64,000 nt of DNA from a virus. Below are positions 11,653 through 34,302 of the stretch, in pieces (position 1 is the stretch's first letter; every line of letters begins with the position of its first letter). The stretch is from positions 1 through 64,000 of IMG/VR virus record IMGVR_UViG_3300025030_000080. One strand, 5' to 3'. Made by a program: the position numbers and the translations under genes. The notes under the pieces were generated by a model, which worked only from the letters and a program-made list of their open reading frames with translations, made no database searches and was not told the DNA's origin.

Positions 11653-12795
11653 GACTAAGTGAATCAGGTTTTTGTTTTATAATTAATTTAGGGAGTTCTT
11701 TACTATAAGTTGGTTCTCCTGTTTTAGCATCAAATTTTAATATCGTCCTTTGTAAATATACTTTCCATTCTAAAGGGGTTCCATAATCAGGATGATAATT
11801 TGGTAATTGTTCTTTTATTCTTTTAATAAAACTTTTGTATCTTATATATTTTTTAATATTTGATAGTAAAGACATTATATTCTCTCCAAATCTACATTAA
11901 CTTGTCCTATTGTAAATTTATTTTTGATATCCCCAAAAGTAGTGGTTTCTATCATATTTATAGTTATACTTTCAATTCTAACTCCTGTTACTAATGAAAA
12001 TTCATCTATATGATGCATAACTGCTTGTTGAATATTTTCTTCCATACGGGATTTTCTTCTTCTAATTTCTTCTAAATCCATTATTAATCCTCCTTCCAAG
12101 CTATAGGATCGTGCCCTTTTTCTTTGTATATTTCATTTGCCAAATATTCGAATTGAGGAAATTTTTTTATGAAAGGTTTTACCATTTCAGAAGTGCAATG
12201 GCCACAATCTCCCCCATGGGCTAACCAGAATAAATTTATTATGAATTTAGCGGTTTCTTCATCCATTTTTATTTCCCTTGATAAGGATCTTCAGAATGAA
12301 CTCCATGGCAAGTGGTCATGATAGTAAGAGGTTTTTTCCTTTTCCCTTCCAAAAATTCTGTATCTTTGAAATCCAAAATTGGAATTTTCCCAGCGTAGAA
12401 ACTTTTACATCTTGGGCATAATTCCCCTTCCCCTCGTTCAAGGGAGGGGGGATTTGCAATTGTTCCGTCTCCCATTTTTCCAGCCATAATTCTTCCTCCG
12501 TTTTCATGATATATGGAATTTCTGTAATTACCCCTTTATCTGCCCAATACCATTGTTCATCGAATTCTACCCAATTTGGATGTTTCCAACTACCTATTAT
12601 ATTCATCATATAAACACATGTAGGAGAGTTACATCCACATGTAGTATTCGGAACGTAAATGCTAACCATGGCATGTTTTTCTATCCGACCGCATCCAGGA
12701 CATTGATATAAAATGTACCCTGCTTGAATATCTGTCATATATACTCCCCATCCGTTGGGACCGGGGACTATTTCAATTATTCCAGGAAATCTCAT
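11579..12795 (-). other. cluster of small hypothetical genes (11579-11875, 11875-12099, 12084-12266, 12269-12487, 12316-12795)
   Basis: Abutting minus-strand ORFs, some with CxxC pairs; no family recognised. Confidence 0.5.
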
Positions 12796-12797
12796 AT

Positions 12798-13868: not shown

Positions 13869-14086
13869 TTTTTTGCCTCCATTGATTTAGATTCTTCATT
13901 TATAAGACGATTTAAATACCATTGGGCTTTCTTTAAATCCTCTAATTTTTTCCCTTTATGAGGAGCACGACATAAATATTTTACGACATTGCCTCCAAGA
14001 AAATCTAATTTTTGATCTAATATAAAATCAATAACTTCAATTTTCCCAGTAGTATAATGAGATGGATGATTAATTTGATCTTTCAT
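13865..14086 (-). CDS. DUF3310 family protein
   Basis: INHPSHYTTGKIEVIDFI...GNVVKYLCRA..K...EDLKKAQWYL. Confidence 0.9.
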   Translation of the reverse strand: MKDQINHPSHYTTGKIEVIDFILDQKLDFLGGNVVKYLCRAPHKGKKLEDLKKAQWYLNRLINEESKSMEAKK

Positions 14087-14838
14087 TCTCCTTCTCCTCC
14101 TACAAAAATATCGTCAAAAACAATAAGAAACGTTTTCTTAAATCTTTCTAGCATAGGAATAGTAATCTCTCTCATTTGAGGATGAGCTTTCGAAGAAGTT
14201 CTCAAACGAAAGAAATGCCGCCATTCACGAATATTAAAGGTGATTACAATTTCCGTTTTCAAACTATTAGGAAGCACCGATCGAGCTTCTTGGGGATTAG
14301 CATTATGTTGAAGCAACTCCATATAAGAATTTTCAGCAGTTTGGCACGCTGTATACCAATGATAAAAACGAGTTCCTGAATTTAATGGTAAATTTTCTGC
14401 ATGCATTTTTCCAATGGCAGCGTCCTTGGTATATCCTTTTAAAATAAGATCATTAAATGTTTCATAAGCTATTTGATACCAAATAGGCAGAATAACCGTT
14501 ATTTCTTTACTATTTCCATAGTTACAATATCGGGTAGATTCTTGACTATAGCTTGCTATTCTATGACGAACTATTTCATGAGATACACCACGATCACAAA
14601 TTACTCTAACTGTTATTTTTTCATGCTCAAGAACCGATTCGTGCCCGTTTTTTATAATCATTTGAACAAATTTAGCCGCAGAATCAATCGTTATTTTATC
14701 TTCTGATTTATAGCAAGTTCGTCCATACTTTTCTAATTTTGCGAGTAAATCATCTCCGTGATAATGATATTTTGTTTCATACCTTGGGCACTCTATTTCT
14801 TCATCTTCAAATTTCCACCAAGGAGAGATAATTTTCAT
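14083..14838 (-). CDS. thyX: FAD-dependent thymidylate synthase
   Basis: GHESVLEH, SHEIVRHRIASYSQESTRY, ARSVLPN, AHPQMR. Confidence 0.95.
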   Translation of the reverse strand: MKIISPWWKFEDEEIECPRYETKYHYHGDDLLAKLEKYGRTCYKSEDKITIDSAAKFVQMIIKNGHESVLEHEKITVRVICDRGVSHEIVRHRIASYSQESTRYCNYGNSKEITVILPIWYQIAYETFNDLILKGYTKDAAIGKMHAENLPLNSGTRFYHWYTACQTAENSYMELLQHNANPQEARSVLPNSLKTEIVITFNIREWRHFFRLRTSSKAHPQMREITIPMLERFKKTFLIVFDDIFVGGEGE

Positions 14839-14839
14839 T

Positions 14840-15652
14840 TCAATCTCCTATTTTAACATAAGAATAAATTTCTCTTTTTTCCACAGGACAAAGTTTATCT
14901 TTAAATATTCTCAAGCTTTCTATCCCCATAATTCCTCCATCATTAACTAATTTATTTTGATTCAAAATAACGGGGTCTGTATAAAATAAATATCTTTGGT
15001 ATTCATTCAAAAATTTAATATTTCTAGAAAATGAAAATCGGAAGTTAATATAAAAATAATTGGAATCCCAAATATTGATTCCAAGAATATATCCATTTTT
15101 ATCTACCAAAATTTTCCTATTATTTCCATTAAAAATATAATTAGTCATAACTTCATCATCATGAATTTCTTGATTTCCTTCTTTATTTTTTAACCATTCT
15201 ATGAATAAATCTTTTAGTTGATTTTCATGATTATCATTCGCTTCAATATACTGCAAAGGGGAATTCCCATACCGTCCAGGAAATTTACGGATATTCTTTC
15301 GGAAAACTTGAAATTTGTTTCCAGTTAGATCTAGGAAATGACGAGGGTTATAAATATGTTCTAATTCCAAAAATTCTTTTTTATAATTAGAAGGCATAGA
15401 CCAATTGGGAAAACTAGCCCATATATGAGTAGCCCAATTTTGGTAATCTCCGCTTATGCTATTTCCATTGGGGAGTAATTCCCCCGTATTCATATTTATT
15501 GGGGGGAATAAAATCCATTCGTTGTGTTTCCAATAAATAAAATCACCCGTAATTTCCTCTTTAATTTTAGCTCTTTGAAAATATTCTTCAGAGCAGGGAA
15601 AAGTAGGAATTATCTTATATTTTTTTAACAATTCCAAATATTGGTTTTTCAA
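14840..15652 (-). CDS. DUF2156 / MprF C-terminal-like GNAT-fold protein (aminoacyl transferase-like)
   Basis: HIYNPRHFLDLTGNKFQVFRKNIRKF and VNDGGIMGIESLRIFKDKLCP resemble the DUF2156 motifs YxY..L..LxGxK...KRN..N.F and IN...D.G..GLR..K..Y.P. Confidence 0.6.
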   Translation of the reverse strand: MKNQYLELLKKYKIIPTFPCSEEYFQRAKIKEEITGDFIYWKHNEWILFPPINMNTGELLPNGNSISGDYQNWATHIWASFPNWSMPSNYKKEFLELEHIYNPRHFLDLTGNKFQVFRKNIRKFPGRYGNSPLQYIEANDNHENQLKDLFIEWLKNKEGNQEIHDDEVMTNYIFNGNNRKILVDKNGYILGINIWDSNYFYINFRFSFSRNIKFLNEYQRYLFYTDPVILNQNKLVNDGGIMGIESLRIFKDKLCPVEKREIYSYVKIGD

Positions 15653-16330
15653 ATTCCCTCCATTTTTTCTGATCGAAGGATTTCTATATCAGTTCCTTCT
15701 TCAAGAATAAATACTTTTATTTTTCCTTTCATTTCAGCAGGTAAATTATCTTCCACCATCTTTTTGATTCTTTCTGATCGTTCCATGCTAATTTTTTGTT
15801 CAATTTTGATAACTATTAAATCATTTTCACGAACTTCTAATGTTTGGACACTTTTAACAAAATCAATTTCGTTCATTTTTTCCTCCATCATCTTTGTTGG
15901 TGAATTAGACCACCCACACCCAAACCAATGTTTACAGGGTCCATTTGTTTTACAGTAGGGGCAAGGACCATCTATATTATTCCAGGGTCGATTTATTTTT
16001 TTAATTATAGAATTCAGTTCCTCCGATTCGCAGATCCCGCATAGGGCAAATGGAGGTATTTCATGAATGCAATTAGAGAGTCTCATTTTTTTCCATAATT
16101 TTGATCGCGGCACGTAAGGAGCAATTGGTACATTCCAATGAGTCAAATGGTTCTTCTATATGTGAGTAAGAAATGATCTTCCATCCGTGCCCAACAAATG
16201 TGCATTTTATTCTTAAATAGAGCAACTTATACCACCACCATTGACGTTTCCACCAAATGCCCCCCACGTTGGATGGTACGGGATATACGAAACACCAAAG
16301 CCCCCTATCTTTACAAATAGTCCAACTCAT
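15649..16330 (-). other. hypothetical genes (15649-16146, 16073-16330)
   Basis: Overlapping minus-strand ORFs with Cys pairs. Confidence 0.45.
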
Positions 16331-16331
16331 C

Positions 16332-16733
16332 CTACTTTCCTTCTACCGCTTTCAACGCGGCTCTACAGATGGCGAGAGGAGCAGTATCGGCGTATCCCCA
16401 AAATTGCTCTCCGTGTCCCTTGTTATGGTCATCCAAACAACATTCCCATTCGCAATTTTCCCACATAATTGCTGGATGAAGATCTATGAGATGGTCCATG
16501 ATATCCCATGCGGCGGCTAGATTGGTGGAGTATGACTTTATAAGCCCATCGCCCGATTGGGCGTTGTGCATACCAGCGCACTTGCAAAACCATACGGTCC
16601 CAGAAAATCCATCAATGTCACCACCGGAAAGTTTCCATGAATAGTCTTTCCTCACCAATGCAGAACACCCCATGACCTTCTCAGCCACCAGCGCGTCCAT
16701 CTCCCGGCCAGCTTTCATCGTATCAATATTCAT
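16332..16733 (-). CDS. phage ABA-sandwich-like domain protein
   Basis: AGREMDALVAEKVMG...YSTNLAAAW...APLAICRAAL; paralog at 45376. Confidence 0.7.
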   Translation of the reverse strand: MNIDTMKAGREMDALVAEKVMGCSALVRKDYSWKLSGGDIDGFSGTVWFCKCAGMHNAQSGDGLIKSYSTNLAAAWDIMDHLIDLHPAIMWENCEWECCLDDHNKGHGEQFWGYADTAPLAICRAALKAVEGK

Positions 16734-16745
16734 TATTTTCCTTCT

Positions 16746-17225
16746 TTATAAAAGTGAATTTACTTTAGCATCTATAAATTTAATAGCTTGTTCTACAGTA
16801 AAAATTTCTTCGGCCTCATTAATAAAAATATCTATTTGAAATTCTACTTCTGCTTTTGTTATTAAACCAATAATATCTAAAGAATCTAATTTTAAATCTT
16901 CGATAAAATGATCTTTTCTATCTATTTTATCTAATGGCATACCAGATTGATCGGATATAATTTTAAAAAGACGATCTTCAACAGAAATAGGTTCTATTTT
17001 CTTTCTTTTTTTCAAAATAGGATGGAGGTTTTCCTTAACTTTTTTATTTATGGGTAATAGTCCATCTCCTTTACATTTACTACAAACTTTTGAATTTCCC
17101 CCATATATAAGGGACATCCAAGTTTTTTCTTTATTAGGCATTTTTCCAGAACCCTTACAAACTTTACAAAAGTCATATTCCGCTACTGGCATATAAATTT
17201 GGAAATGTTCCATAGTCATAGTCAT
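16746..17225 (-). CDS. acyl carrier protein fused to an N-terminal CxxCxGxG zinc finger
   Basis: CKVCKGSG and CSKCKGDG, then FIEDLKLDSLDIIGLITKAEVEFQIDI..EAEEIFTV (ACP with DSL serine). Confidence 0.8.
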   Translation of the reverse strand: MTMTMEHFQIYMPVAEYDFCKVCKGSGKMPNKEKTWMSLIYGGNSKVCSKCKGDGLLPINKKVKENLHPILKKRKKIEPISVEDRLFKIISDQSGMPLDKIDRKDHFIEDLKLDSLDIIGLITKAEVEFQIDIFINEAEEIFTVEQAIKFIDAKVNSLL

Positions 17226-17233
17226 TTATATTG

Positions 17234-17622
17234 TTATTTCCCTCTTCTTTCTACTGCATCTCGAATATTGCCTACTGCTTGTTTTTGCCCTTCTGTCGCA
17301 TGTTTTCTTTCTTCAACAGTTTCTGCTATGCCCAATAGAGTATCCTCTGCCCATTCGAAATCATCATCAGATATGCAATCATTTATTTCTTTTAACAAAT
17401 CCTCCCATTCACATTCTTTACACATTACTTGTCTCCCTCGGCCTCTCTCTTTTTCCTTTCTTCATCTCCAGGGAAATCCTTCGTCCAATCTAACCCCCCT
17501 TTATTCATAAGTCCTGAGGAAGAGCCAGATTTAGAGGATTTTCCTCCTTTTGATGATTGGCTCTGTAACCGTTCGACTAATTTGCGACTTATAGAACCAG
17601 TTTTTCTACTCTTGCCCCCCAT
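17234..17622 (-). other. two small hypothetical genes (17234-17425, 17425-17622)
   Basis: Translationally coupled small ORFs. Confidence 0.5.
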
Positions 17623-18574
17623 TTGATACCCCCTTTTTAAATTTTCTTCTCTCCCGGCCCTCTTTTACTTTAGCCCTAGATTTTGGATCAGACCAAAGTT
17701 GTTTCATAGTTTTAGATAATTTTGATTTTGATTCTTCACTATTTTGTTTTCCAGTATTAGACTCTATGTTTTTTCTTCTATATTCTGGATTATTCCATTT
17801 TTCTTTTATAGATTGAGATAAGGACTTTAACATATTTGATCTCATTTCTGGATCAGCCCATTGATTTGTAGCAGATTCTGATGCTTTTCTACTAAATTCA
17901 GGATCAGATGCTATAGTATTTGCTCTATTTAAAACTCTTTTTGATCGAATATCAGGGTCTTCCCATTCTTTTTTCCTCAGAATAGATCCAATTTGACGAG
18001 ATTCTGGTGATCTCATAATTTCTAATATTTTGTCCTTAAATTTAGGGTTTTCCCACCTATCTTTAGTACTTTTAGACATTATAGCTTTTACTTCTGGGTT
18101 ATCAAGTCCCTTTTTAATAGCATCTTTCATTCTATTTTTATATTCTGGATCTTCCCATAAATTTTTAACTGATTCAGATATTTGAGATATAATTTCAGGA
18201 TTATCTTTGTATCTATTTTTAGTTAATTCAGATAGCTTTACTTTAGATTCCTCCGACCATTTTATCCCCCTATTGGATTCTGCTATTTCCCGAATATTAT
18301 ACCCATTTTCTTGTTTATATGATTCATAGTAATCTAACCAAATTTGTTCTCTAGGAACTAATTGAGTTAAATCATAAACTAATTCTATTACCATAAATAC
18401 AAAAGATTCTTCCCCATATTTACAATAGGCAGATTGAATGTGTTGAGTATGTTCTCCTCTACGAAGTAACCATAAATGCCCCCTTTCCCATCTAATATAT
18501 ACATCTTCAGAAGATCCTATATACTTCTTCCCATTTATTCTATTAAGTATCATGTATACACCGGAAATTTTCAT
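17606..18574 (-). CDS. GIY-YIG homing endonuclease with NUMOD3-like repeats
   Basis: MKISGVYMILNRINGKKYIGSS..RW...REQ.WLD..GYN and repeated W.NPE units; start moved to MKISG (ATGA overlap with the upstream gene). Confidence 0.88.
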   Translation of the reverse strand: MKISGVYMILNRINGKKYIGSSEDVYIRWERGHLWLLRRGEHTQHIQSAYCKYGEESFVFMVIELVYDLTQLVPREQIWLDYYESYKQENGYNIREIAESNRGIKWSEESKVKLSELTKNRYKDNPEIISQISESVKNLWEDPEYKNRMKDAIKKGLDNPEVKAIMSKSTKDRWENPKFKDKILEIMRSPESRQIGSILRKKEWEDPDIRSKRVLNRANTIASDPEFSRKASESATNQWADPEMRSNMLKSLSQSIKEKWNNPEYRRKNIESNTGKQNSEESKSKLSKTMKQLWSDPKSRAKVKEGRERRKFKKGVSNGGQE

Positions 18575-19344
18575 TTTATTCTTCTCTTTAAAATAGGGGG
18601 GATTATTTTTTCTTTCTGTAAATCCAAAATCCCCCCGCAGTCGTCGAAAATACACCCCGCCACAACTGCTTGCATATTATTATGCAGTCCATCTATCATA
18701 AAATATTTACATCCTTCTGGAAAATAGATATTAATTTTATCATTGAAATTAAATAATGCTAAGAAATCTCCTGTTCTTATTCCAAGAGGAGAAATAGAAT
18801 CTGGAAGAACATCTTCTGGTTCTGTTAAGCCGAGGCCCTCCATTTCTATTTTTCTTTCGAGCAGTATCAGAGATCCGGCGTAGATATCTCGTTGAAGTAT
18901 TTTTATTTCTCCCCCTCTAGTTACAAATTCAATATGCGATAAATTCTCGTCCAAAAGGTCTAACGAGGATTTATGAAAAGGGATCTTCCACTTCATTTTT
19001 TCTGTATCATAAAATTTATAAAATAACTCTTCTACTTCTTGAAAAGTTTGAGTAGGTATTCTACATTTTTTCTTACGGAGAAATTCTTCTCCTTTTTGAA
19101 GGAAAGTTATGCTATTTCCGTCTGCAGTAAAATTTGGGGAATCATAATCGCTTAGAAAAAAACGAATTGGTTCTGGAAATTCATTCTTAGTTGCCTCGAA
19201 CCGAAGTATCATGGTTTTATCGCTGTTGAGAATATAAATAACATTTTCCCAACAGAATGCAGAGTTTTTTTGATTCCCTGATTGTTCCAAAGCAACTCCA
19301 TATGAAAATATTCTTTCTACTTCTAATTCTCTCAAAATTGTCAC
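18571..19344 (-). CDS. hypothetical protein (beta-rich, possibly clamp-like)
   Basis: 257-aa ORF; no firm motif. Confidence 0.55.
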   Translation of the reverse strand: MTILRELEVERIFSYGVALEQSGNQKNSAFCWENVIYILNSDKTMILRFEATKNEFPEPIRFFLSDYDSPNFTADGNSITFLQKGEEFLRKKKCRIPTQTFQEVEELFYKFYDTEKMKWKIPFHKSSLDLLDENLSHIEFVTRGGEIKILQRDIYAGSLILLERKIEMEGLGLTEPEDVLPDSISPLGIRTGDFLALFNFNDKINIYFPEGCKYFMIDGLHNNMQAVVAGCIFDDCGGILDLQKEKIIPPILKRRIK

Positions 19345-21211: not shown

Positions 21212-21916
21212 TTACAATGCTTCAAAATTTAAGTTTCTTTTATTTCTAGCTTTTGCTTTTCCTTCAACGGATTTGGCAATATGTTCCGGACTAAGATGTC
21301 TTCCAATAAGGGAAGCAGATAAATTGGCTAAATATTTTGGGTTATTGCTTCTCCTTATAAACCCTTCCGCCATTTTAGCTCTAAATTTTGGATCTGCCCA
21401 TTGTTTTTTAGCAACAACTGACTGATTTTTTCTAAAATTAGGATCTTTTCCCCTTTCTTGATTCATTTCTAATATTTTTATTTTATGTTCAGGACTTTTC
21501 TTTCTGCCTTTCAAAAGAGAAATTACTTTATTTCTATATTCTGGATCTAACCAATGATCTTTACTAGTTTGAGAAATTATTTTCTTAACTTCTTCTGAAT
21601 GTTTATTTCCTAAACAAGAATTAGCATATCTACAAACATTATACCCATATCTATCGTCATATGATTGGTAGTAATCTAACCAAGTTTGCTCTCTGAAAGA
21701 TAATTGAGACAAATCTTTTACTATTTCCATTATTATAAATTCAAAATTTTCTTCTCTATATTTATGATAAGCCCTTTGAAAATAAAGAGAATGGTGAGTT
21801 CCTTTACGAAGTTCGCATAAATGATTAGTCCACCTACTATATAAATTTACAGCAGATCCGACATATCTTTTTTCATTAATTTTATTAACTATCATATAAA
21901 TACCTGATACTTTCAT
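21212..21916 (-). CDS. GIY-YIG homing endonuclease (NUMOD3)
   Basis: SGIYMIVNKINEKRYVGSAVNLYSRW..H, REQ.WLD, GYN, GNKHSEE. Confidence 0.9.
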   Translation of the reverse strand: MKVSGIYMIVNKINEKRYVGSAVNLYSRWTNHLCELRKGTHHSLYFQRAYHKYREENFEFIIMEIVKDLSQLSFREQTWLDYYQSYDDRYGYNVCRYANSCLGNKHSEEVKKIISQTSKDHWLDPEYRNKVISLLKGRKKSPEHKIKILEMNQERGKDPNFRKNQSVVAKKQWADPKFRAKMAEGFIRRSNNPKYLANLSASLIGRHLSPEHIAKSVEGKAKARNKRNLNFEAL

Positions 21917-22564
21917 TCACCGTACCAAATTTTCCAACATTTCTAGACGGAAATCGGAACTTTCAATATATCTCCAAATTATGTTTTCCTCTCGATCTCT
22001 TCCATATGGTTCCATTCCTTGGGCCCAATCCGGAAAATAAGCCGGATTGCTCATTCTTAAATTCCACGAGTTCTTAACTTCTTTCATCAAAGTTTCTGAT
22101 AACCACCCTCCACGTTCCTCTACGAAAGTGTTATATTCTCCCCACGTTACGGGTCGGGGGGCGTTGTTTCGAACAAACCTAGCTGCAATCATATTGTTTC
22201 CGTAGGAGAATCCTCCACCTAAAGGAAGATAGATGTCAGATATAGAACAGCAAATATCGTCGTCATTGATAGGAGAGTTGCCAAAATCAAAAGTGGATGA
22301 AGAGAATCCCTGATTTTTCATTAATTTCATAAATTCCCCTAAGACTAGGGAACCTAGCCACTGACTATCTGACATTATAAGAAACATTCGATGGAAATCT
22401 ATCCCTAACATTTCCATTTGGCGCTTTACTCCGGGGGCGGAAGCGGAATAACTATATGTATCGAAAGTAATGTGCTTGATTCCAATTTCCTTTACTCTAC
22501 TGATCCATTCTTCCACTGCATCTTTTTCATCGTTTACGAAAATCATTAAGGGTTCGATCCTAGC

Positions 22565-22586
22565 CACCACCCTAACACCACCCTAA
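22565..22586. repeat. 11-bp tandem duplication (CACCACCCTAA x2)
   Basis: Directly visible; lies exactly at the frame break. Confidence 0.9.
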
Positions 22587-23058
22587 CCCCTGCATCTACA
22601 AGAGCTTTTGCAGCAAGTAAGCGTTGGGAGAAGGAAGGTGCCCCAGGCTCTAACTTTTTATTTAAAGCATCATCAGAAGATATCATAGTCATATGGACAG
22701 CAGAACCGGCCTTATTATCTGCCAAAGCTCTAACGTAGTCTTCTCTACCGATTAACGCTGATTTTGTGTTCACCATAATAGGATAAACTTGATCTGATAA
22801 ATAACGCATGAAATTCAAACTAATTCCTTTTTGCGCTTCGATAGGAAGAAAATCTTCAAATCGAATTCCTAGACGGATGGGAATTTGAAGACTTATTGCT
22901 TTTGGTAATTCTGGTCCATCAATCTTTTGGCCTCGAAATTTCATTAATTTATCCATCTCCGTTCGGAAGTATTCCGGTCGGCAATGGCGTATTCCAATTT
23001 CTTTGGGATTATCAAAAAATGATGTATATAATGATGATCGGAATGAATCTGCAAAACA

Positions 23059-23481
23059 ATTGTGAACTAAAATCCCCTCCGCGAAATAATTATTATTGGG
23101 CACGCATTCAAAATTATAAACTATTTTTTTATTGCTAGTTTTTGCTCTATATATAGATTCAATTCTTCTCCATGCCCATTTATTAGAATTATTGGGGGGA
23201 TAAAAAACAATCATATCATGAATACTTAATTGTCCAGCATCTATCCATCCTCTACTAGTAAATACAGGATGTTCTAAAGTAAGTTTTAAAATTTTTTCTT
23301 TTATTTTGATAACTATCAAATCTTCTGCGGTTCGACTCATTATTTTTGTAACTACTGACTTTTCTGATTCTAAGTGAGTTCTGTAAGTTTTTAATGAAAC
23401 TACCAAATCTCCTTCTTTGATATCCTTAATATTCTTTTTCTTTCCGCCCCACATTTGTATTTTAGTTAATGGCGGCAGACA
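23059..23481 (-). mobile_element. mini-intein (141 aa) in the radical SAM CxxxCxxC motif
   Basis: CLPPLT...LTLEHPVFT...VYNFECVPNNNYFAEGILVHN|C; no endonuclease domain. Confidence 0.9.
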
Positions 23482-23775
23482 ATATTTGCACTGGTAACTG
23501 CAAGATAGGGCATCGTAAGTATCTGAATTTAAAGGAAGTGGACAATGAGCGGCTCTTAATGAAACTTCAATAAATGAAGTAATTTCCTCTTTATTTAGCA
23601 TTCGCTGTTTAACTTCAAATTTTTCGCTATCGAATGAAAATTCGGAATAATTTACTTTACGGCCTTTCTCACGAACTAATCCTTTATGCTTCTCCATTGA
23701 TTCGAGTTGAGATCTACGAGGGATAATGGTTTTGACTATTTCGCGCAACTCCCAGTAATCTTTAAATATAGTCAT

Positions 23776-24233
23776 TTAATGATTTATCTCCATTTCTTCT
23801 TCTCTTTCGTCAAATTCTACCACTTCGTCAATTGCCCATAGTAAAGAAGTATAATCAGGCAGTAAATATTTCATTTCTGATACGAATACTAAGGCTTGAG
23901 CTAATTCTTCCCATTGATCTTCCGTTGCTGCTCCTGATTTAAATAATTCAATAGTTCTGTCCATATATTCCCGTTTGGTCAATTATCTTTCCTCCCTTGT
24001 CCAGTGGGAGGATTAATTGGCCTTGGAGTTATGGGAGGAGAGTTCCATCCTCCTTTACACATATTAGTAGGTGGATGGGTAGGAGCAATACCATTTGGTT
24101 TTTTAGTAGGAAGTTTTGGTTGGTAGCTATATCCACTACGTTTTGGCTCTCTCTCAGAATAACCCCAAATATAACATATTAATCCCCAAACTATAAATAA
24201 TATTAAAGATTCCCATCGTTCAAATCCCGTCAC
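23776..24233 (-). other. two small hypothetical genes (23776-23982; 23979-24233 membrane-anchored)
   Basis: Coupled ORFs with RBS. Confidence 0.5.
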
Positions 24234-24250
24234 GTTTTTCCTCCCTACTA

Positions 24251-24277
24251 GTTCTACAGAAAACGGAATAGTTTCAA
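24251..24277 (-). promoter_or_regulatory. phage promoter-like motif, copy 2
   Basis: TTGAAA-N15(ending TTCTG)-TAGAAC in an intergenic gap before an RBS. Confidence 0.5.
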
Positions 24278-24305
24278 TTTATTTTATATCATTTTATTTG
24301 TAATT

Positions 24306-24602
24306 TTAATTCAATGTAGGTATTATGACCTTTCGTCTAACTCTCTTTCCGTCCCAAGATTCTGGTAAAAAACAAGCTCCCATATCCTCTTTTGTTTTGA
24401 TATTCATTACAATCATAATTAATTTTTTAACTACTAAAAGGGGTCCTTTGTCATCTAATGTATATATTACTGTATATTTGGGTCCTAATGGAAGTCTTTT
24501 TACAAATTCCTTTACTTCCCATTTATCAATATATAATTTTGGATTATCAACTTCTAGAATATCATCATTTGCTAAAATAGTTTTAGTTATCGAAAGTTCC
24601 AT
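24306..24602 (-). CDS. hypothetical protein
   Basis: 98-aa ORF in the operon. Confidence 0.55.
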   Translation of the reverse strand: MELSITKTILANDDILEVDNPKLYIDKWEVKEFVKRLPLGPKYTVIYTLDDKGPLLVVKKLIMIVMNIKTKEDMGACFLPESWDGKRVRRKVIIPTLN

Positions 24603-24603
24603 T

Positions 24604-25539
24604 TCATCTCCCTAACCTATCTTTAAAATATTTTATAGTTTGTTCTAATCCGTCAGATAATGTAACTTTTGGTTCCCATTTTAATTTATCTTTAGCCATA
24701 GTTATATCAGGTCTACGTCGAATGGGGTCATCTCCAGGCAATGGTTTATAAATTATCTCTGATTTTGATTTTGTTAATTTTATTATTACTTGAGCCAACG
24801 TTTTTATATCTATTTCTATTGGATTACCTATATTTATAGGACCAGTAATATCATTGGTATTCATCATTTTTATAATACCTTCTATTGTATCATCTATAAA
24901 ACAAAAAGAACGAGTTTGCCTTCCATCCCCATATATTGTGATAGGATCATTTTTTAAAGCTTGTAAAATAAAGTTAGATACCACTCTTCCATCTCCAGTG
25001 GCTAAATTAGGTCCATAAGTATTGAAAATTCTTACCACTTTGATAAAAAGTTTATGTTGTCTATAATAATCAAAGAATAAAGTTTCTGCACATCTTTTTC
25101 CTTCATCATAGCAAGATCGAATCCCTATAGGATTTACATTTCCCCAATAATCTTCATATTGAGGATGCCTCAAAGGATCTCCGTAAACTTCCGATGTAGA
25201 TGCTTGAAGTATTTTAGCTTTTGTTCGTTTTGCTAATCCTAGCATATTTATTGCCCCATGAACTATTGTTTTAATAGTTTGAACAGGATCTTTTTGATAA
25301 TAAATAGGAGAAGCAGGGGCAGCAAGATTATAAATTTCATCTACTTCAACATATAATGGAAAAGTTATATCGTGCCTTAATAATTCAAAATTAGGATTTG
25401 ATAAAAGAGGAAGAATATTTTCTTTGGTGGATGAATAAAAATTATCTACACAAAGAACTTCATTTCCTTCATTTAATAATCTTTTACATAAATGAGAACC
25501 AAGAAATCCTGCTCCTCCAGTTACTAATATTTTTTTCAA
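24604..25539 (-). CDS. UDP-glucuronate decarboxylase (UDP-xylose synthase)-like SDR
   Basis: [69 protein letters not shown]. Confidence 0.92.
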
Positions 25540-26723
25540 AATAATAATCCTTTTTTTTCTTCAATAGCTCCTTCTTCTTTTCTTCCATAAATATTCATTC
25601 CATTTTTATCTTTATCCAAAATTATAATTTCTGGACTATCCTTCAAAGAAAAATATTGTCCTTTTCCATTCCAAATTTCTTTCATTCTATCGTAAGCCTC
25701 TGGTTGTCTAAATGTTATTTCCTCCATATCATCCCAACAAACCGAACCTTTTTCCATTATTATTTTACAAGCATGTTGAAAGGTGAATTCATAGGGAACG
25801 AATAACCCATCCACTCCGCAACAACTTTCACAAGAATTACTAAATGGAAAATTTACGAAATCAGGAGAAGAAGCGGGGACATTTTTACTTCTCAAAATAT
25901 CTCTAAATTGTTTTCCTACGGGGGTCCAATTTTCATCTAGATTCTTTTCCAAAAGTTTGACGTAATTGAATCCCCGGCTTTCAAATTCTTTTTGAGCTAT
26001 TTTGTAATTTGAAGTCCGATAATTAAAGAAACTAACATGTTTAGCTCCGGTACGGGATGCCATCTCGGCGTACCCTTCCAACATGTCTTCCTTCGAATTG
26101 ATTCCCACTAGGATTGGTTCCCAACGTACAGCGGTCCAAATCCCTAGGTTGTTTAAAGTCTTGACTAGGGACCATCTCATAGATGCAGGGGGATTCCCCG
26201 GTTCTAATTTGTAATTGAGGGTATCACTACCCCCCATAATAGATACAATAACAGCTACATTCATATCTTTTAATAAATCAAGGTACCTATGCATTCCAAT
26301 ATAATGACTTTTAGTTTCTATGATCATAGGAACTTTATATTCTTTGAATAATTTGAGAACGGGGACTACTACATTATCTCTCATATCCTCTAGGCAGAAT
26401 ACTTCTGATTTACTTCCCATATTGAAAGGGAGTCCTCTACGAAGGCATTGAACGTGCCAATCTGTATATTGTTTATCAGAACCATAGGCTTTATCAAAAA
26501 GTTTCTTAAAATCTTCTGGATTACAAGCTCTGACTAAATCTCTTGACCATCCTTCGTAGTACCGTGTGTAAAGTCCTTCTTCCATTTCTCTACAAAAACA
26601 AAAATGACATGGAAAACTGCAGCCAGCAAAAATATCACCTCCAAATGCTTGGGGGCATACGAGGGAATCATTTCTAAATCCAACTATAGACCCAAATTTT
26701 AGTTCTCTAATATCTTTTTTCAA
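25536..26723 (-). CDS. SplB-like radical SAM protein
   Basis: [32 protein letters not shown]. Confidence 0.8.
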
Positions 26724-27121
26724 GATGTCATCTTTTCTTTCAACTCAGGTAGATCCTTTCTTTCTTTTAGACTAAAATTTCCCAAAACTTTTTGTAGACA
26801 CCGTTTTTGATCTTCTGCTTCATCTACTGTCATTTCTGCGTTATAAATAGGAATAATTTTATCGCCCTTTAAATTAAATCCCACATTGTAAATCCAAATT
26901 TTATTGATATTGGGTGTTATATGAGAAGTTGGTTTTACTAGTGCCCCAGTCCCAACAAAACCATTAAGATATGTAATAACGTGGGCTATTTTTACACGAG
27001 AATAAAAATACTCTAATTCAATAAATAATGTATCTCTCTGTTTTTTAGTAATATTTTTATTCTTACAACTTTCGTTCCATATATTATAGGTGTCTAGACT
27101 AAATGGAAGTTTTCTATCCAT
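26720..27121 (-). CDS. hypothetical protein
   Basis: 133-aa ORF in the operon. Confidence 0.5.
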   Translation of the reverse strand: MDRKLPFSLDTYNIWNESCKNKNITKKQRDTLFIELEYFYSRVKIAHVITYLNGFVGTGALVKPTSHITPNINKIWIYNVGFNLKGDKIIPIYNAEMTVDEAEDQKRCLQKVLGNFSLKERKDLPELKEKMTS

Positions 27122-27156
27122 TTATTGATTCTCCTTAATCCTAGTATTTTCTTTCA

Positions 27157-28005
27157 TCAATACCCCACAGGAAGTTCAAATGGTGTAATTAAATCTTCGG
27201 GTATTTCAATATCATCGAATTGAGGAATATTGGCAGATGATTTTCGTATATATTCCAAATATCCCACTCTACTTGGATCAATATCTAATATTTTGGTAGC
27301 AGCTACGTCCATAACGTACATATCTTTTGTTGAAATTAAAATATTAGCTGGTTTAGGAATTCCGCATTGTTCCGAATATTCTGATCCTACGATACCATCT
27401 AAAACACAAGCAGCAACTCTATCTTTAATAAGAAAATATAAGTCATGAAGTCTTTTATGAAGAATATCACAACTTCCACGTGGGTGCATACTACCTTTTT
27501 GGGCCATCATGCCCATACAATTTTTGATAGATATCGTAGTTCCCGACATATTATGAACTTTCAATTTAGGAACATTTATGACGAAATCGCATTCCAACAT
27601 AGTATTAGAAAATTTGGCCCCGAATAAGGATAAATATCCATCCCTACGGTAAAGGGTAAACTCATGAAACCGGGGTCCTTCCTGAAGTCCTATTAATTGT
27701 ACTCCATATTTTTTAGATAATTGGTCATAACCAGACAATTTAATTGTATGCTCAAATTGGTCTTTAAATCCACAATCTCCTACTATTATATCATTAGCCC
27801 CTTCTCTTATCAAATATTCTATAACTAGAGAAACAACTTCAACTCTGGTAGTAGATGCTATATCCCATCGGGTGGGAGGACATACGAGGTTGGGTTTAAT
27901 GAAAACTTTTTTACCACTACAATCTGGAAAGTATTTCCAAAATTCTTGGGATATATTTTCTAATTTTAAATTTGCGTAATCAGATTCTCTATGAAATTGG
28001 ATCAA
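27157..28005 (-). CDS. DUF362 family (Fe-S associated) protein
   Basis: GKKVFIKPNLV, TTRVEV, INVPKLKVHN..TISIKNCMG, LDGIVG, MDVAA. Confidence 0.85.
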   Translation of the reverse strand: MIQFHRESDYANLKLENISQEFWKYFPDCSGKKVFIKPNLVCPPTRWDIASTTRVEVVSLVIEYLIREGANDIIVGDCGFKDQFEHTIKLSGYDQLSKKYGVQLIGLQEGPRFHEFTLYRRDGYLSLFGAKFSNTMLECDFVINVPKLKVHNMSGTTISIKNCMGMMAQKGSMHPRGSCDILHKRLHDLYFLIKDRVAACVLDGIVGSEYSEQCGIPKPANILISTKDMYVMDVAATKILDIDPSRVGYLEYIRKSSANIPQFDDIEIPEDLITPFELPVGY

Positions 28006-28027
28006 TTACTACTCCCTTTTAAAAATA

Positions 28028-28129
28028 TGGTGGTGGTGAGGGGATTACCACTTATTTCGGTCTTATCACCGAACACTGTTAAGTACCCCCGTCAAGGTTC
28101 CTCCGGGACATTCGTCCAAGAGCACCACC
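28028..28129 (-). ncRNA. putative 102-nt tRNA-like RNA (7-bp acceptor stem plus ACCA, non-cloverleaf)
   Basis: GGUGGUG/CACCACC then ACCA; arms GGAC-GAAU-GUCC and a long GGGG..ACUUA..UUCGGU/ACCGAA..UAAGU..CCCC hairpin; TATAAT 5 nt upstream. Confidence 0.6.
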
Positions 28130-28142
28130 CCAAGATTATATT

Positions 28143-28865
28143 TCAGTTAACGGTGAACGATCCATTTGCTACTGTAATAATTTCCATCTTGCTGAGCAAC
28201 GACACTCCGCATTTGGCTACTGCAGCGGATTCCTTAATATTACTTTTCCCTCCCTGATCTGCGTAAGACTGATCAGCAGCATTAACCAACTCCTCTAAAG
28301 TCCCCGTTTTCAACGAGAGAAGAGTATCCGCCAAAACTGTCCAACGACTAAATGACTTGGGAGCCGGGGGAACACGCTTGATTCTTTCTTTCTCCGGTTT
28401 TGGAGCTTTAGGAGCAGCCGGAGTTTTAGCGACAGTAGGAGCCGTGGGAGCAGGAGTTGCTGCTGTAGGAGTGGCAACGGGGGCTACGGGAGCGGCGGGG
28501 GCAGGGGTAGCTGCAGAACGCCCAACACGACGGGCTACGGGAGGGGGCGGGGGAGCAGGAGGTTCGGGTTCAGGTTCCGGTTCAGGTTCCGGCTCAGGAG
28601 TGATCGGAGCTTCCTCCACCGGAGTTTCCGGAGTTGATTCTTCCTGATCTAACCCCAACGTGGTAATAATATCGTTGTACATGTTGATAATATTTGCGTT
28701 CGATGACCCCGGAGCATCCCCTTCGGCCTTTTCCACTGCATCGAGATATGCCGGGATCAGCATCTCCTTTGAAATCTTGTCGGCGTTGTTAATCCCAATT
28801 TCAGTAGCACAAGCAATGAGCTTTGAATGTACGATTTTCTTCAAAAGTTTCGGATCGAATTTCAT
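28143..28865 (-). CDS. hypothetical protein with Pro/Ala/Glu-rich linker
   Basis: Start placed at MKFDPK behind a GGAGGGAG RBS; (EP)n and PA-rich central region. Confidence 0.65.
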   Translation of the reverse strand: MKFDPKLLKKIVHSKLIACATEIGINNADKISKEMLIPAYLDAVEKAEGDAPGSSNANIINMYNDIITTLGLDQEESTPETPVEEAPITPEPEPEPEPEPEPPAPPPPPVARRVGRSAATPAPAAPVAPVATPTAATPAPTAPTVAKTPAAPKAPKPEKERIKRVPPAPKSFSRWTVLADTLLSLKTGTLEELVNAADQSYADQGGKSNIKESAAVAKCGVSLLSKMEIITVANGSFTVN

Positions 28866-28978
28866 GTAGTTCTCCCTCCGTTCGGAATTTGTAAGACAAC
28901 TACAATCTTCTACAGGAATAGCCACTATCTGATACTTCATCTCACCCACCCCTTCTGGCTTGGTTTCCCGTGTACTTA

Positions 28979-29005
28979 TTACTACAGGAGCTAAGCCTAA
29001 ATCAA
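28979..29005 (-). promoter_or_regulatory. phage promoter-like motif, copy 3
   Basis: TTGATT-N15(ending TCCTG)-TAGTAA. Confidence 0.45.
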
Positions 29006-29084
29006 TATTATTTTTTATGAACAATTATTATACCTTTTGATTGATTATTTTAAATTTCTTCCTTTTCATTATCTGATGGGTAAA

Positions 29085-30461
29085 TCATAGTATATCTCCT
29101 CTGTCTGGTTGATACGGAGAATTTTCCTTAGTAATAATATCAGGGGTCCCCCTTCTGTCAATTCTTCCCTTACCTATCAAATAACGAGTTAATACTTCTG
29201 TGTAAGTATGGGAAGATCGTACATTTCCCGTAACAACTTTATCAATTCCCCATCTATTAATCAAAGAATCTATTACTTTTTCGCACCATTCTCTGGCCCC
29301 TATTGGCATATTTAAACGTGGATGAAGTTCTCTAATTCTATCGTGAAGTCTATTAGCCCCTATAATAAAATCATTTTCTTCTTTTTGGTTAAACTCTCCA
29401 CTCGCCCCTAATAAAATTTTATCACGATAAAATTCTTTTAACCATCTTGTATTTTCGGGGTTTTTCTCTTTTTCTTTTTTAACCATGAAAGTTACTGGTT
29501 CAGGTTCGTTTTCTAAACAATGTAAAAATTGACTTTTAATTGACGAGGCAAAACGATTGTAAAAGAAAGTACCTAACCCCAAATTTTTAAAAATTGATTT
29601 ATTTACTGGTCGGTAATTCAGATTTGTAGCTATTAATTTATATTTATCTATCACCGAAATTATTTCTTCTTTTGAATAATTTTTATTATTAGTTAAACCC
29701 TCTCCTATAAAAAGTTTTCCATCTAATACTTTTTCTATGATAGAAACTATATCTGTAAATGTTTTTGTTGGTTTGGCGTAGCCTTGATTATTCCATGCCG
29801 GCATATGATGATGGGGTAAACCCGGCGAGGAATTCCAATAATTGATAATATCGAGAGTGTCTTTCCTATACCGTTGACGAGGGGTAACTTCAAATTCTAT
29901 AGATATAGATTTATTTCTTTTAATTAAAGACTGGGTTGAATTTAAGCCTAAATTATGAACGTCGGTTTCACCTGCTTTTGGTGAAACCCCCGAATCTTTC
30001 GAGAGAAAAGATTCGTTAGAATCTTTTGGATCTAAAGATTCTGGTATAGGTTCAATAATTATAGGTTTACTTAAAGAGATTCCGCTTTGAACGGAATCCA
30101 GATTCCGCTTTGAACGGAATCCAGATTCCGCCCATTCTTGTATTTTATTACGATCAATTCTATACCAATTTTTGGCCGGTATCCCTTTTCGAGATACTTG
30201 AATAAAATTTAAATCTTGAAGTATTTTAGTGGAAGATGTTTGAACATCTTCGCTAAATCCAGTTCTATTTTTCAATAAACTTTGAAGCATATAAAAATAC
30301 TCTCCGGGTTGTATTAATTCTTGTTTAATTAAGTAATTTTCCCAATCTATTAAGTCTCCTAAAATTATAGTAACGAAAGGACCTAATTTTATTAATACGG
30401 AACGGTTACAAGCTATGAAATTTGCAAATGGAATTTGAGATATATTCCTATTATTTTCCAT
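29085..30461 (-). CDS. putative replication initiator (N-terminal winged-HTH)
   Basis: YFY...LKNRTGFS..Q......L....FI.V.RKGIPAKNWYRID pattern of phage initiators; contains internal repeats; lies next to dnaB. Confidence 0.65.
   Translation of the reverse strand: MENNRNISQIPFANFIACNRSVLIKLGPFVTIILGDLIDWENYLIKQELIQPGEYFYMLQSLLKNRTGFSEDVQTSSTKILQDLNFIQVSRKGIPAKNWYRIDRNKIQEWAESGFRSKRNLDSVQSGISLSKPIIIEPIPESLDPKDSNESFLSKDSGVSPKAGETDVHNLGLNSTQSLIKRNKSISIEFEVTPRQRYRKDTLDIINYWNSSPGLPHHHMPAWNNQGYAKPTKTFTDIVSIIEKVLDGKLFIGEGLTNNKNYSKEEIISVIDKYKLIATNLNYRPVNKSIFKNLGLGTFFYNRFASSIKSQFLHCLENEPEPVTFMVKKEKEKNPENTRWLKEFYRDKILLGASGEFNQKEENDFIIGANRLHDRIRELHPRLNMPIGAREWCEKVIDSLINRWGIDKVVTGNVRSSHTYTEVLTRYLIGKGRIDRRGTPDIITKENSPYQPDRGDIL
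30077..30131. repeat. iteron-like 23-bp tandem repeats (AGATTCCGCTTTGAACGGAATCC x2 plus a partial copy)
   Basis: Directly visible; each unit contains the inverted repeat GATTCCG/CGGAATC. Confidence 0.8.
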
Positions 30462-32744: not shown

Positions 32745-33439
32745 TTTTGATCTCCTTTTGGTTGGAAGGGTTGGATTAAACTAGGATCTCTTATGATATT
32801 CCAATGATTTCCTGCTCCCCAAAGTAATAGCTGAGGGGAGAATACTATACGCTCGGTCCTTTTCCAAGTAAACCACAAAATTGCTTGTAATTGATTCGGA
32901 AGTAATTTATGTTTTCTAGCTACTTTGAAAAATACTTCGGCCATTTCGTCGTATCTTTTTGGGGAAGATACTAATTTCAACTCTGCTACTTCTTTCATAC
33001 GGTATCGTCTACCAGAATAAATGGAACACATATGCCCATCAAGTGTAATATATTTAGGGTCTTTGGGCAGCAAAATATTTAAGTAAAAATTTCTAGTTTT
33101 TGGTCCTGAAGTTTCTGCTAGGAAATCCTTATTTCCGATTAGGAATTCAATTGCTCTACTTTTACATTGATTATAAGTAGAAACTATAATTTTATTTGGA
33201 GGGATTTTATTTTTAATACCGATCATAATACTGACGAGGGACCGGATATTACCCATATAATCATTGTTGGGGGATAATGCAACGAATGCGGCTACTGTTG
33301 GGCAGAATCCGAATCCATGATAATTTGCTACATTTTTTAACATTTCATTATATCTATGGTAGGCTACTTTTCCTTCTTCTTTGTCGATGGAATCTGATAA
33401 AGAGTAAACTTTTTCTATGTTGATTGTTTTAGATTTCAA
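32741..33439 (-). CDS. phage HhH DNA-glycosylase-like protein
   Basis: ALSPNN..N, GPKTRNFYLNI, ITLDGHM, QLQAILW. Confidence 0.55.
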   Translation of the reverse strand: MKSKTINIEKVYSLSDSIDKEEGKVAYHRYNEMLKNVANYHGFGFCPTVAAFVALSPNNDYMGNIRSLVSIMIGIKNKIPPNKIIVSTYNQCKSRAIEFLIGNKDFLAETSGPKTRNFYLNILLPKDPKYITLDGHMCSIYSGRRYRMKEVAELKLVSSPKRYDEMAEVFFKVARKHKLLPNQLQAILWFTWKRTERIVFSPQLLLWGAGNHWNIIRDPSLIQPFQPKGDQK

Positions 33440-34302
33440 AAGAAAAGCCCTGCTAATTCTTTCTTTATGTTTTTTTCTATCTTTAAAATTGCATTATTTT
33501 GTTTTATCAACGATTTGATAATAGCGGGTCTAGCCCAATTTCTTTGGAATTTGGACCATTCTTTGTTTTTATCTCCTTTTTCATTTTTATATAACATACC
33601 CATTGGTAAAAACCCTGCCTTGACCGTTTTAAATAGCCTATTTTCTGCTTTTTGTATAGTATCGTTAGGAAATCCTATTAAAACAAAACATCTGAGTTGA
33701 TTGAAAGTAAACCCTGCTTCTTTCAGCATGCTCCCCGCTTTGATTAAAGATTCATATTTTTCCTCCGTATCGTATGCAAAGAATATTTGAGAAGGATTGG
33801 CTTTTATGAGTAGATCTACTATCCATGGTTTTAATTTAGTTGCTTCTAATCCTCCAGTAAATTCTGGTCGATGATTTTGGCGTGAAAGCATTAAAAAGAC
33901 ATTTCTAATATGATTTTCTGAGCAAGCTAATAGGTTATCATCTAGTATATTCCAACCATCTTTTATTTCTAATTCCCTGATATTTCCTTCTCTTTTCCAA
34001 ACAGAACAAAACCAACATTTATTTGGGCATCCTCTAGATGTAATGACATATCCTAATTTTAAATATTTACCAGGGATAAATTCTTCCCCTTTATTTCCTA
34101 ATGCAGGACCACCAATATTTATAGGAGCAACATCTTTCCAACTTTTTTCTAAAATTTCTATTAATTTTAGGTCCCAAGTAAAAGTAAAGGATATCTCCAC
34201 TTTTTTTATTTCTGGTAATAGTAACCCAGGTGGTCCGAAGAATGCCAAGGAATCATCTGGGGATGCTTTAGTTTTTCTAGGGAATACTCTTGCTATAGTC
34301 AT
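33436..34302 (-). CDS. radical SAM protein
   Basis: IGGPA, TSRGCPNKCWFCSVWKREG, LDDNLLA, FAYD, FVLIGF. Confidence 0.85.
   Translation of the reverse strand: MTIARVFPRKTKASPDDSLAFFGPPGLLLPEIKKVEISFTFTWDLKLIEILEKSWKDVAPINIGGPALGNKGEEFIPGKYLKLGYVITSRGCPNKCWFCSVWKREGNIRELEIKDGWNILDDNLLACSENHIRNVFLMLSRQNHRPEFTGGLEATKLKPWIVDLLIKANPSQIFFAYDTEEKYESLIKAGSMLKEAGFTFNQLRCFVLIGFPNDTIQKAENRLFKTVKAGFLPMGMLYKNEKGDKNKEWSKFQRNWARPAIIKSLIKQNNAILKIEKNIKKELAGLFF

Follow-up and report, generated by a model that had tools for sequence, protein, structure and literature searches.

DUF362 and paired radical SAM genes in the replication module of groundwater phages: a conserved cassette with a putative role on DNA

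What would a phage do with two radical S-adenosylmethionine (SAM) proteins, a DUF362 protein and a nucleotide-sugar enzyme encoded in a row among its replication genes? This arrangement occupies positions 21917-28005 of the viral record IMGVR_UViG_3300025030_000080. The record consists of one phage contig of 76,087 bp with a completeness of ~76%, and the window analysed here is its first 64 kb (64,000 nucleotides). The source habitat is groundwater (seven studies), and the minus strand carries essentially all genes of the record. An initial annotation of the window proposed that the four genes form one anaerobic, Fe-S-dependent route of DNA or nucleotide modification, possibly adding a pentose. 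The genes do lie in the order given there, namely DUF362, a first radical SAM (RS1), UDP-glucuronate decarboxylase (UDP-xylose synthase, UXS) and a second radical SAM (RS2), all on the minus strand. From the sequence comparisons below, the cassette built around DUF362, RS1 and RS2 appears to be a genuine and conserved variant, so far uncharacterised, of the DNA-directed radical SAM systems represented by spore photoproduct lyase (SPL) and by gp53 of Pseudomonas phage M6. The cluster and its flank contain the following features, among which the mini-intein, the 11-bp duplication, the 133-aa and three small open reading frames (ORFs) and the GIY-YIG gene had been overlooked.

27157-28005, minus strand: DUF362 protein, 282 aa (PF04015, 122.6 bits against a cut-off of 24).
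26720-27121, minus strand: ORF of 133 aa without a known family, specific to the window's own clade.
25536-26723, minus strand: RS1, radical SAM protein of 395 aa with the motif CSFPCHFC.
25539-25550, minus strand: C-terminal GLLF tail of RS1, a candidate sliding-clamp docking peptide.
24604-25539, minus strand: UXS, 311 aa, a short-chain dehydrogenase.
23776-24602, minus strand: three short ORFs encoding 98, 84 and 68 aa, without a known family and confined to the window's clade.
22546-23775, minus strand: N-terminal part of RS2 including its intein, an ORF of 409 aa with the motif CSYQCKYC.
23059-23481, minus strand: mini-intein in RS2, 141 aa, without an endonuclease domain.
22565-22586, minus strand: 11-bp tandem duplication, TTAGGGTGGTG twice, frameshifting RS2 (read directly).
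21917-22570, minus strand: C-terminal part of RS2, an ORF of 217 aa with the CC motif of the family.
21212-21916, minus strand: GIY-YIG homing endonuclease gene directly after RS2 (PF01541, 45.7 bits; PHROG homing endonuclease, E=2.7e-25).
18571-19344, minus strand: PCNA-like two-domain sliding clamp, 257 aa (model with a predicted local distance difference test score, pLDDT, of 81; Foldseek match to PCNA at 9e-10).

Comparison with relatives separates these genes into a conserved unit and later additions. Fifteen viral-contig loci and 51 metagenome loci were profile-scanned and collapsed at 90% RS1 identity into 35 lineage clusters; the counts that follow cover only those clusters where presence can be judged. 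The profiles were built from our own alignments; a broad alignment of the family proved too divergent for the locus search. RS2 adjoins RS1 in 26 clusters and fails to do so in one, and DUF362 lies upstream of RS1 in 24 clusters as against four without it. The PCNA-like clamp follows RS2 in 18 clusters and is missing from two; where relatives lack the inserts, it lies immediately next to RS2. A DUF2156-like gene is present in 14 clusters and absent from three. UXS, in contrast, is found in two clusters and is absent from 18. The radical SAM pair is kept even in lineages that are only 25-38% identical (L015/L063, L064-66, L072 and L076), and in every relative examined RS1 and RS2 lie inside the replisome genes, which bears out their assignment to the replication region. 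The conserved unit is therefore DUF362, RS1 and RS2, placed between a DnaB-type helicase gene and the PCNA-like clamp gene in a family of uncultured groundwater and sediment phages. RS1 and RS2 form its tightest pair, and DUF362 and RS1 a second recurrent pair. The proposed grouping of all four genes thus holds up in relatives for three of them and fails for UXS.

The DUF362 match spans positions 1-199 of the 200 in the profile, and the protein has the conserved motifs KPNLV, GDCGFKDQW, PKLKVH and QKGSMHP. A search against PDB sequences returned nothing. Orthologues share a single nearly invariant cysteine and no cluster motif; the description 'Fe-S-dependent' consequently fits the radical SAM proteins and not DUF362. 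In other relatives, where the 133-aa ORF is lacking, DUF362 abuts RS1 directly. In L071, a 118-kb contig with different neighbours, DUF362 overlaps RS1 and a UvsW helicase gene comes next, with no RS2 within 7 kb. DUF362 is missing from the L015 clade, including G004, a 57-kb record with terminal repeats; the L015 protein found in the DUF362 position was considered as a DUF362 protein and ruled out. DUF362 thus usually, though not invariably, partners RS1 on its upstream side.

As had been supposed, RS1 and RS2 are paralogous over their full length (profile comparison probability 100%, E=8e-42, 361 columns, 25% identity). Both carry the CxxxCxxC motif, which reads CSFPCHFC in RS1 and CSYQCKY-intein-C in RS2 and is invariant in orthologues. 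The Pfam model Radical_SAM (PF04055) gives 19.3 bits for RS1 and 21.0 bits for RS2, below its gathering cut-off of 29.5, because the family is too divergent for the model. The structural model of RS1 (pLDDT 91.8) has a partial TIM-barrel radical-SAM fold, and a Foldseek search with it returned radical SAM enzymes in general. Among solved structures the fold closest to both enzymes is that of SPL, with RlmN, SuiB, SkfB, PFL-AE and lipoyl synthase all scoring within 2-3.5 Z units of SPL. The only NCBIfam models that match either protein are those of the PA0069 and Rv2578c families (E about 1e-11), and with scores of 43.5 bits (cut-off 430) and 42.8 bits (cut-off 360) RS1 and RS2 fall well short of membership. 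The SPL family model TIGR04070 does not match RS1 or RS2 at E<=0.01. The earlier label 'SplB-like' is therefore apt at the level of fold and clan, and does not extend to membership of the SPL, PA0069 or Rv2578c families.

Relatives of RS1 are numerous in metagenomes. There are 88 close homologues among metagenome proteins, none with a name beyond 'DNA repair photolyase', and a profile search of 1.84 billion representatives gave 1734 clusters (50% identity) at E<=1e-3. Of the ESM Atlas clusters, the nearest are 86-100% viral. Elsewhere the searches were empty: the RS1 sequence and profile against PDB sequences gave nothing meaningful, SPL included, tblastn of RS1 against GenBank phages gave no match, the RS1 profile found no relative in 185,579 species genomes, and the distant family members P0091 and P0139 found nothing in viral contigs. 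By these comparisons RS1 and RS2 belong to a large, mainly viral and unstudied branch of the COG1533 clan. The branch has its own hallmarks. RS1 and RS2 share three further family-invariant cysteines, one lying 12 residues ahead of the cluster motif and the others forming a CC pair ~265 residues after it (C23, C301 and C302 in RS1), and these are invariant even at 20-30% identity. The C-terminal domain of RS1 aligns with the C-terminal part of RS2 encoded by the 217-aa ORF. No SPASM-type Cys-rich domain is present. In the SPL of G. thermodenitrificans the hydrogen-atom donor is Cys140 and the tyrosine relay consists of Tyr96 and Tyr98.

The C-terminus of RS1 offers an indication of where the enzyme may work. 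In RS1 orthologues of 27 lineages, nearly all sequences end in a short hydrophobic peptide that follows a variable basic linker, for example KKGLLF, KKGLFW, GFGL, LPTLF, DLLAHL and SLAEVFG. Slightly more than half of the close orthologues (35 of 67) end in glycine followed by two hydrophobic residues and a third that is hydrophobic or aromatic, and most of the others also have short hydrophobic tails. Within the record itself, only RS1 (KKGLLF) and the third radical SAM (LAGLFF) among 150 ORFs end in this pattern; the N-terminus of PolA reads MNGFFDL. The end of the tail is modelled with low confidence, which suggests flexibility. Terminal clamp-binding motifs are of the QL[SD]LF or QLxLxL type, and the RS1 tail resembles these. 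Together with the adjacent gene for a PCNA-like clamp, the tail suggests that a sliding clamp brings the enzyme to DNA.

The reading favoured here, held with about even confidence, is that RS1 and RS2 carry out replication-coupled radical chemistry on phage DNA. RS1 would dock on a phage sliding clamp through its C-terminal tail, and RS1 and RS2, either as a complex or in successive steps, would apply 5'-deoxyadenosyl radical chemistry to newly replicated phage DNA. We infer that base modification of the gp53 kind is likelier than repair. DUF362, of the LarA clan, would act as a helper that is dispensable in some lineages. Groundwater is dark and commonly anoxic, which suits radical SAM chemistry and argues against an ultraviolet (UV) photoproduct as the substrate.

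Several observations count against this reading. Nearly all of the co-occurrence comes from one broad phage group with a wholly syntenic replication module, so that adjacency is weaker as evidence of joint function and may reflect descent. The likeness of the RS1 tail to clamp-binding motifs was judged by eye, and with E about 1e-5 the link to gp53 is a weak one. Nor does this reading account for the placement of UXS precisely between the two radical SAM genes. Furthermore, the other enzymes of the M6 pathway, that is the amino acid:DNA transferase gp51, the pyridoxal-phosphate decarboxylase gp52, the 5-hydroxymethyldeoxyuridine DNA kinase gp54 and the dUMP hydroxymethylase gp58, are unmatched in G000, G001 and G003 by tblastn at E<=1, a comparison of BLAST-level sensitivity. 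The model PF00303 likewise gave no match.

A more elaborate form of this chemistry can be imagined as a hypermodification route that does without a hydroxymethylase, a kinase or a pyrophosphoryl-type transferase. Clamp-docked RS1 and RS2 would activate a base in nascent DNA, the DUF2156-like transferase would deliver an amino-acid-derived group, possibly from charged tRNA or from the ACCA-ending RNAs of the phage, DUF362 would tailor the product further, and UXS-like inserts would decorate the adduct. In this full form the scheme is speculative and seems unlikely.

The same enzymes could instead repair DNA. As clamp-recruited lyases, RS1 and RS2 would undo a DNA lesion, for instance a thymine adduct or crosslink, in the way that SPL does, with no modification added. 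SPL is indeed the best fold match, bacterial COG1533 genes are reported to be SOS-regulated (PMC8565304), and the cassette lies among genes for UvsX/RecA, UvsY, a flap nuclease and a uracil-DNA glycosylase (UDG)-polymerase fusion, with the UvsW helicase gene following it in L071. However, the SPL family model is unmatched and the habitat is dark groundwater. The spore photoproduct, moreover, requires spore-type DNA. Two diverged paralogues and a DUF362 gene kept over long divergence also fit a multi-step synthesis better than a single reversal, and on balance repair seems rather improbable.

A substrate other than DNA has a similarly low probability. Here RS1 and RS2 would act on RNA (e.g. the ACCA RNAs or tRNAs), on a protein or peptide, or on a small molecule or cofactor, and their place in the operon would reflect the timing of expression only. 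The fold scores of RlmN, SuiB, SkfB, PFL-AE and lipoyl synthase, within 2-3.5 Z units of that of SPL, would allow this, and DUF362 shares its clan with LarA, a small-molecule enzyme (PMC11770544). DUF2156-like and ACP-like proteins are encoded nearby, and an ACCA-ending structured RNA lies directly upstream of DUF362. This RNA, already pointed out in the initial annotation, is a 107-nt candidate at 28026-28132 (minus strand) with a GGUGGUG/CACCACC terminal stem; its minimum free energy is -44.2 kcal/mol, with z=-3.3 against shuffles. It is called by neither ARAGORN nor Rfam. Against such substrates, a strict pattern for the RNA finds no match in the loci of relatives, ACP and ThyX are without a counterpart in G001, the SPASM-type domain is lacking, and the clamp-binding-like tail with its adjacent PCNA-like clamp points to DNA. 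Ribonucleotide reductases of classes I-III and a ThyA-type enzyme were not found in G000, G001 and G003 (each at least 57 kb) despite a full replisome, and without a ribonucleotide reductase an activase role for these radical SAM proteins has no visible client.

The proposal that prompted this analysis, in which DUF362, RS1, UXS and RS2 work together along one anaerobic Fe-S route to place a pentose, namely xylose taken from UDP-xylose, on a DNA base, depends on UXS. The enzyme is genuine. It matches human UXS1 over its full length (E=1.4e-110, residues 2-309) and keeps the NAD-binding GxxGxxG and the catalytic STSEVYG and YDEGKR motifs. Its gene also lies precisely between those of RS1 and RS2, and that strand shows no terminator-like site. 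Its distribution tells otherwise: besides being missing from most clusters, UXS is absent from G003, a 96.8-kb record rated 100% complete that has DUF362-RS1-RS2. It is limited to the window's own clade, where it occurs alongside clade-specific small ORFs and homing endonuclease genes, and in L001-3 it is interrupted by a LAGLIDADG intein, with homing endonuclease genes flanking it, so that the region serves as a landing site for mobile DNA. UXS is a UDP-xylose synthase of cellular type, acquired recently as a lineage-specific insert between RS1 and RS2.

Nor is the remainder of a sugar pathway in evidence at the locus. No UDP-glucose dehydrogenase was found. The earlier observation that the window shows no glycosyltransferase or hydroxymethylase holds, and neither a glycosyltransferase nor a ThyA-type hydroxymethylase was found in the whole 76-kb record, at its ~76% completeness; the glycosyltransferase-bearing part of the genome is missing from it. 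A search for glycosyltransferases in the rest of the genome had been suggested, and they do occur in G001, the only near-complete UXS-bearing relative, whereas GT1 or GT2 had no match in the six UXS-free relatives searched. G001 has a GT4 and a sub-threshold GT2-like glycosyltransferase together with two methyltransferases beside its portal and capsid genes, as well as a 991-aa GT4-methyltransferase-GT2 fusion protein (the stretches concerned are L016 11023-19291 and L017 14939-17914). The fusion protein is encoded on the same strand as the replication genes and could in principle transfer a sugar. Most of the G001 glycosyltransferases, however, lie in the cluster by the portal and capsid genes, which suggests glycosylation of virion proteins or polysaccharide. 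It is therefore suggested, from one informative UXS-bearing genome, that UXS feeds glycosyltransferases carried elsewhere by the same clade and not this cassette. With UXS in two of 20 clusters, absent from G003 and linked to glycosyltransferases in one genome, a four-gene pentose pathway is not supported, and pentose addition by these genes appears distinctly improbable. A nucleotide-sugar gene amid a cassette need not belong to the cassette.

RS2 is interrupted twice in this record. The first interruption is an insert that begins with CLPP, ends with VHN and is followed by Cys, placed at the third cysteine of CxxxCxxC. The Hint and intein matches (PT-HINT, 29.6 bits against 27.7; intein C-terminal model, 18.4 against 15.6) fall at residues 91-240 of the N-terminal ORF, with the Radical_SAM and PA0069 matches beyond the intein. 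With an N-terminal Cys, His-Asn, a +1 Cys and the Hint match, the insert has the sequence features by which an intein is recognised and is taken to be one. Distant relatives have no intein in RS2. In one contig of run X15, 423 nt are skipped at the intein position (within 5 nt of ambiguity), which points to an intein-free allele in the population. The second interruption is the 11-bp duplication, which splits RS2 into two ORFs. In L001, L004 and L013 the alignment has an 11-column gap at the duplication and reads through in frame; in relatives generally the two parts of RS2 are continuous and in frame, and intact orthologues are 461-492 aa long. Assemblies of four groundwater runs were mapped onto the region, and the two that cover the duplication site, X1 and X15, come from different studies. 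Their contigs are without the 11 bases, which indicates that RS2 is intact in the population and that the frameshift is peculiar to this record.

Relatives show further insertions of the same kind. In L001-3, RS1 is laid out as N-extein plus IntN, then a zinc-ribbon ORF, then IntC plus C-extein, a split-intein 'fractured gene' arrangement; in L001 these pieces are 135 aa, 326 aa (a double-zinc-ribbon ORF) and 393 aa. RS2 is interrupted in these loci too, and in L001 it is cut into three ORFs, with the region of its Fe-S motif present twice. The stretches of L001 concerned in these observations on RS1, UXS and RS2 are 8528-11071, 11068-13335 and 15072-18458. In several relatives an intein interrupts RS1 or RS2 at its Fe-S motif. 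As a rule inteins reside in conserved genes that are functional, and the insertions at the Fe-S motif, like those in the polymerase and clamp loader of this phage, mark conserved positions in genes of importance. Both the intein and the homing endonuclease genes are selfish DNA aimed at conserved genes, and the region is a hot spot for such elements. That the cluster consists of decaying or unlinked passengers, with RS2 a pseudogene and its neighbours an accessory cargo of inteins and homing endonucleases without joint function, is suggested by the frameshift and by the density of such elements but is highly improbable, given that the duplication is absent from the contigs of both covering runs and from all relatives, that RS1 and RS2 are kept, invariant cysteines included, at identities as low as 25%, and that inteins favour genes of this functional, conserved type.

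The cluster is embedded in a complete replication module. On its upstream side lie genes for a primase, the third radical SAM, DUF7178 and the DnaB-type helicase. After the cluster come the 257-aa clamp, a second GIY-YIG endonuclease, the ACP-like fusion, the DUF2156-like protein, ThyX, DUF3310 and a beta-clamp-like protein, and further on the UDG-exonuclease-PolA fusion, the clamp loader, UvsY, a gp32-like single-stranded DNA-binding protein, a flap nuclease and RecA/UvsX. The remaining features of interest are as follows.

33436-34302, minus strand: third radical SAM, 288 aa, unrelated to RS1/RS2 and accessory, with the motif CPNKCWFC and ending in LAGLFF.
16746-17225, minus strand: zinc-ribbon/ACP-like fusion protein.
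14840-15652, minus strand: DUF2156/MprF-C-like protein (25.3 bits, just below the cut-off; the L015 protein in the same position scores 40.6 bits).
14083-14838, minus strand: ThyX.
13865-14086: DUF3310 (75 bits).
12798-13868, minus strand: beta-clamp-like protein, 356 aa (weak Pfam match).
11032-11652: DUF2284 (weak, 22.7 bits against a cut-off of 25).
7420-11031, minus strand: UDG-exonuclease-PolA fusion with an intein (about residues 577-937).
5399-7372, minus strand: clamp loader with an intein (about residues 104-451).

The phage thus encodes two clamp-like proteins, one PCNA-like and one beta-clamp-like. The gene at 18571-19344 was also considered as a modification enzyme, which is ruled out by the model and the Foldseek match to a PCNA-like clamp. 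The inserts in the UDG-exonuclease-PolA fusion and the clamp loader are missing from relatives; the clamp-loader intein is overlapped by a 227-aa ORF in another frame, at 6070-6753. Among the nearby items listed in the initial annotation, the ACP-like protein, DUF3310 and the third radical SAM were recovered, the DUF2156-like and DUF2284 assignments are just below the cut-off and weak, respectively, and the HhH protein is a helicase 22 kb away. The window and G001 are collinear, their positions being shifted by about 43.7 kb. G001 has no counterpart of the third radical SAM, ACP or ThyX, and DUF7178 there abuts the primase gene.

The small ORFs of the cluster gave little. The 133-aa ORF has no Pfam, PHROG or NCBIfam match and has counterparts only in L001-3, and the three ORFs at 23776-24602 are without family matches, the first two being matched in L001-3 only. 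A small conserved peptide was sought in the block, and only off-frame echoes of RS1 were found. Predicted promoter and terminator sites in the cluster are no more frequent than in shuffled sequence, and the listings name no RNA sequencing run that contains it. The Rfam scan of the window reported one tRNA and nothing else. ARAGORN reports a tRNA-Leu(CAA) at 30071-30150 (minus strand), within a 458-aa ORF at 29085-30461 and below the Rfam gathering threshold, which is probably a false call. The 293-aa protein encoded at 28143-29024 (minus strand) has a long low-complexity centre rich in Pro, Ala and Glu, is encoded by locally GC-rich DNA (0.40 as against ~0.34), and is conserved in relatives only in its C-terminal part.

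Several elements of the locus have known counterparts. UXS resembles human UXS1 (PDB 2B69, 4GLL) in its full-length match and catalytic motifs, and differs in being phage-encoded and in having a LAGLIDADG intein in close relatives. 'Fractured genes' with split inteins and a free-standing endonuclease gene are known, as are inteins of COG1533 radical SAM genes. The RS1 layout in L001-3 corresponds to the former, whereas the RS2 intein of the window is contiguous and has no endonuclease. The PA0069/Rv2578c proteins (NF033668, NF038135; intein form NF038136) differ from RS1 and RS2 in being cellular and single-copy. The mycobacterial NF038136 form appears to be interrupted by its intein at the corresponding position in the Fe-S motif, since the match runs ungapped over the extein-intein junction (residues 91-177 of the N-terminal RS2 ORF to model positions 68-154). 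Identity to SplB (PDB 4FHC, 4RH0; TIGR04070) is 12-13%. Unlike SplB, RS1 has an extra C-terminal domain with the CC motif, and the enzymes here are paired paralogues from a dark habitat.

The most informative comparison is with M6 gp53, of all phage relatives of RS1 and RS2 the nearest to have been studied. It is an SPL-like radical SAM protein that isomerises N-alpha-glycinyl-thymidine in DNA and has been described as the first radical SAM enzyme involved in installing a DNA modification, in the pathway to 5-(2-aminoethyl)-deoxyuridine (PMC8989533). Like RS1 and RS2, gp53 is phage-encoded, belongs to the SPL-like (COG1533) clan and is annotated 'DNA repair photolyase'. It is about 480 aa long, as is intact RS2, and has an N-terminal extension ahead of the cluster motif. 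Its gene lies among replication and nucleotide genes, and the protein works on already replicated DNA. The RS1 and RS2 profiles align with gp53 (hhalign probability 80% and 71%, E about 1e-5) over a part that includes the cluster motif and the upstream Cys, and more distant members of the family reach 73 bits in BLASTP; tblastn with gp53 gave no direct match. On the other hand, the CC motif is missing from gp53, whose Cys-rich C-terminus is of a different kind; gp53 is encoded by one gene where RS1 and RS2 form a paralogous pair, and M6 has no DUF362. The partner of gp53 named aGPT-Pplase, the amino acid:DNA transferase, has no matched counterpart here. Judged by these alignments, the kinship to gp53 appears real at the clan level, and the cassette does not appear to be an M6-type pathway. 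To our knowledge, no radical SAM enzymes other than SPL and M6 gp53 have been shown to act on DNA. If the family described here modifies DNA, it would add a new DNA chemistry and a new route by which phages evade restriction, and if the proposed docking is true, RS1 would represent a new class of clamp-recruited DNA-modifying enzymes.

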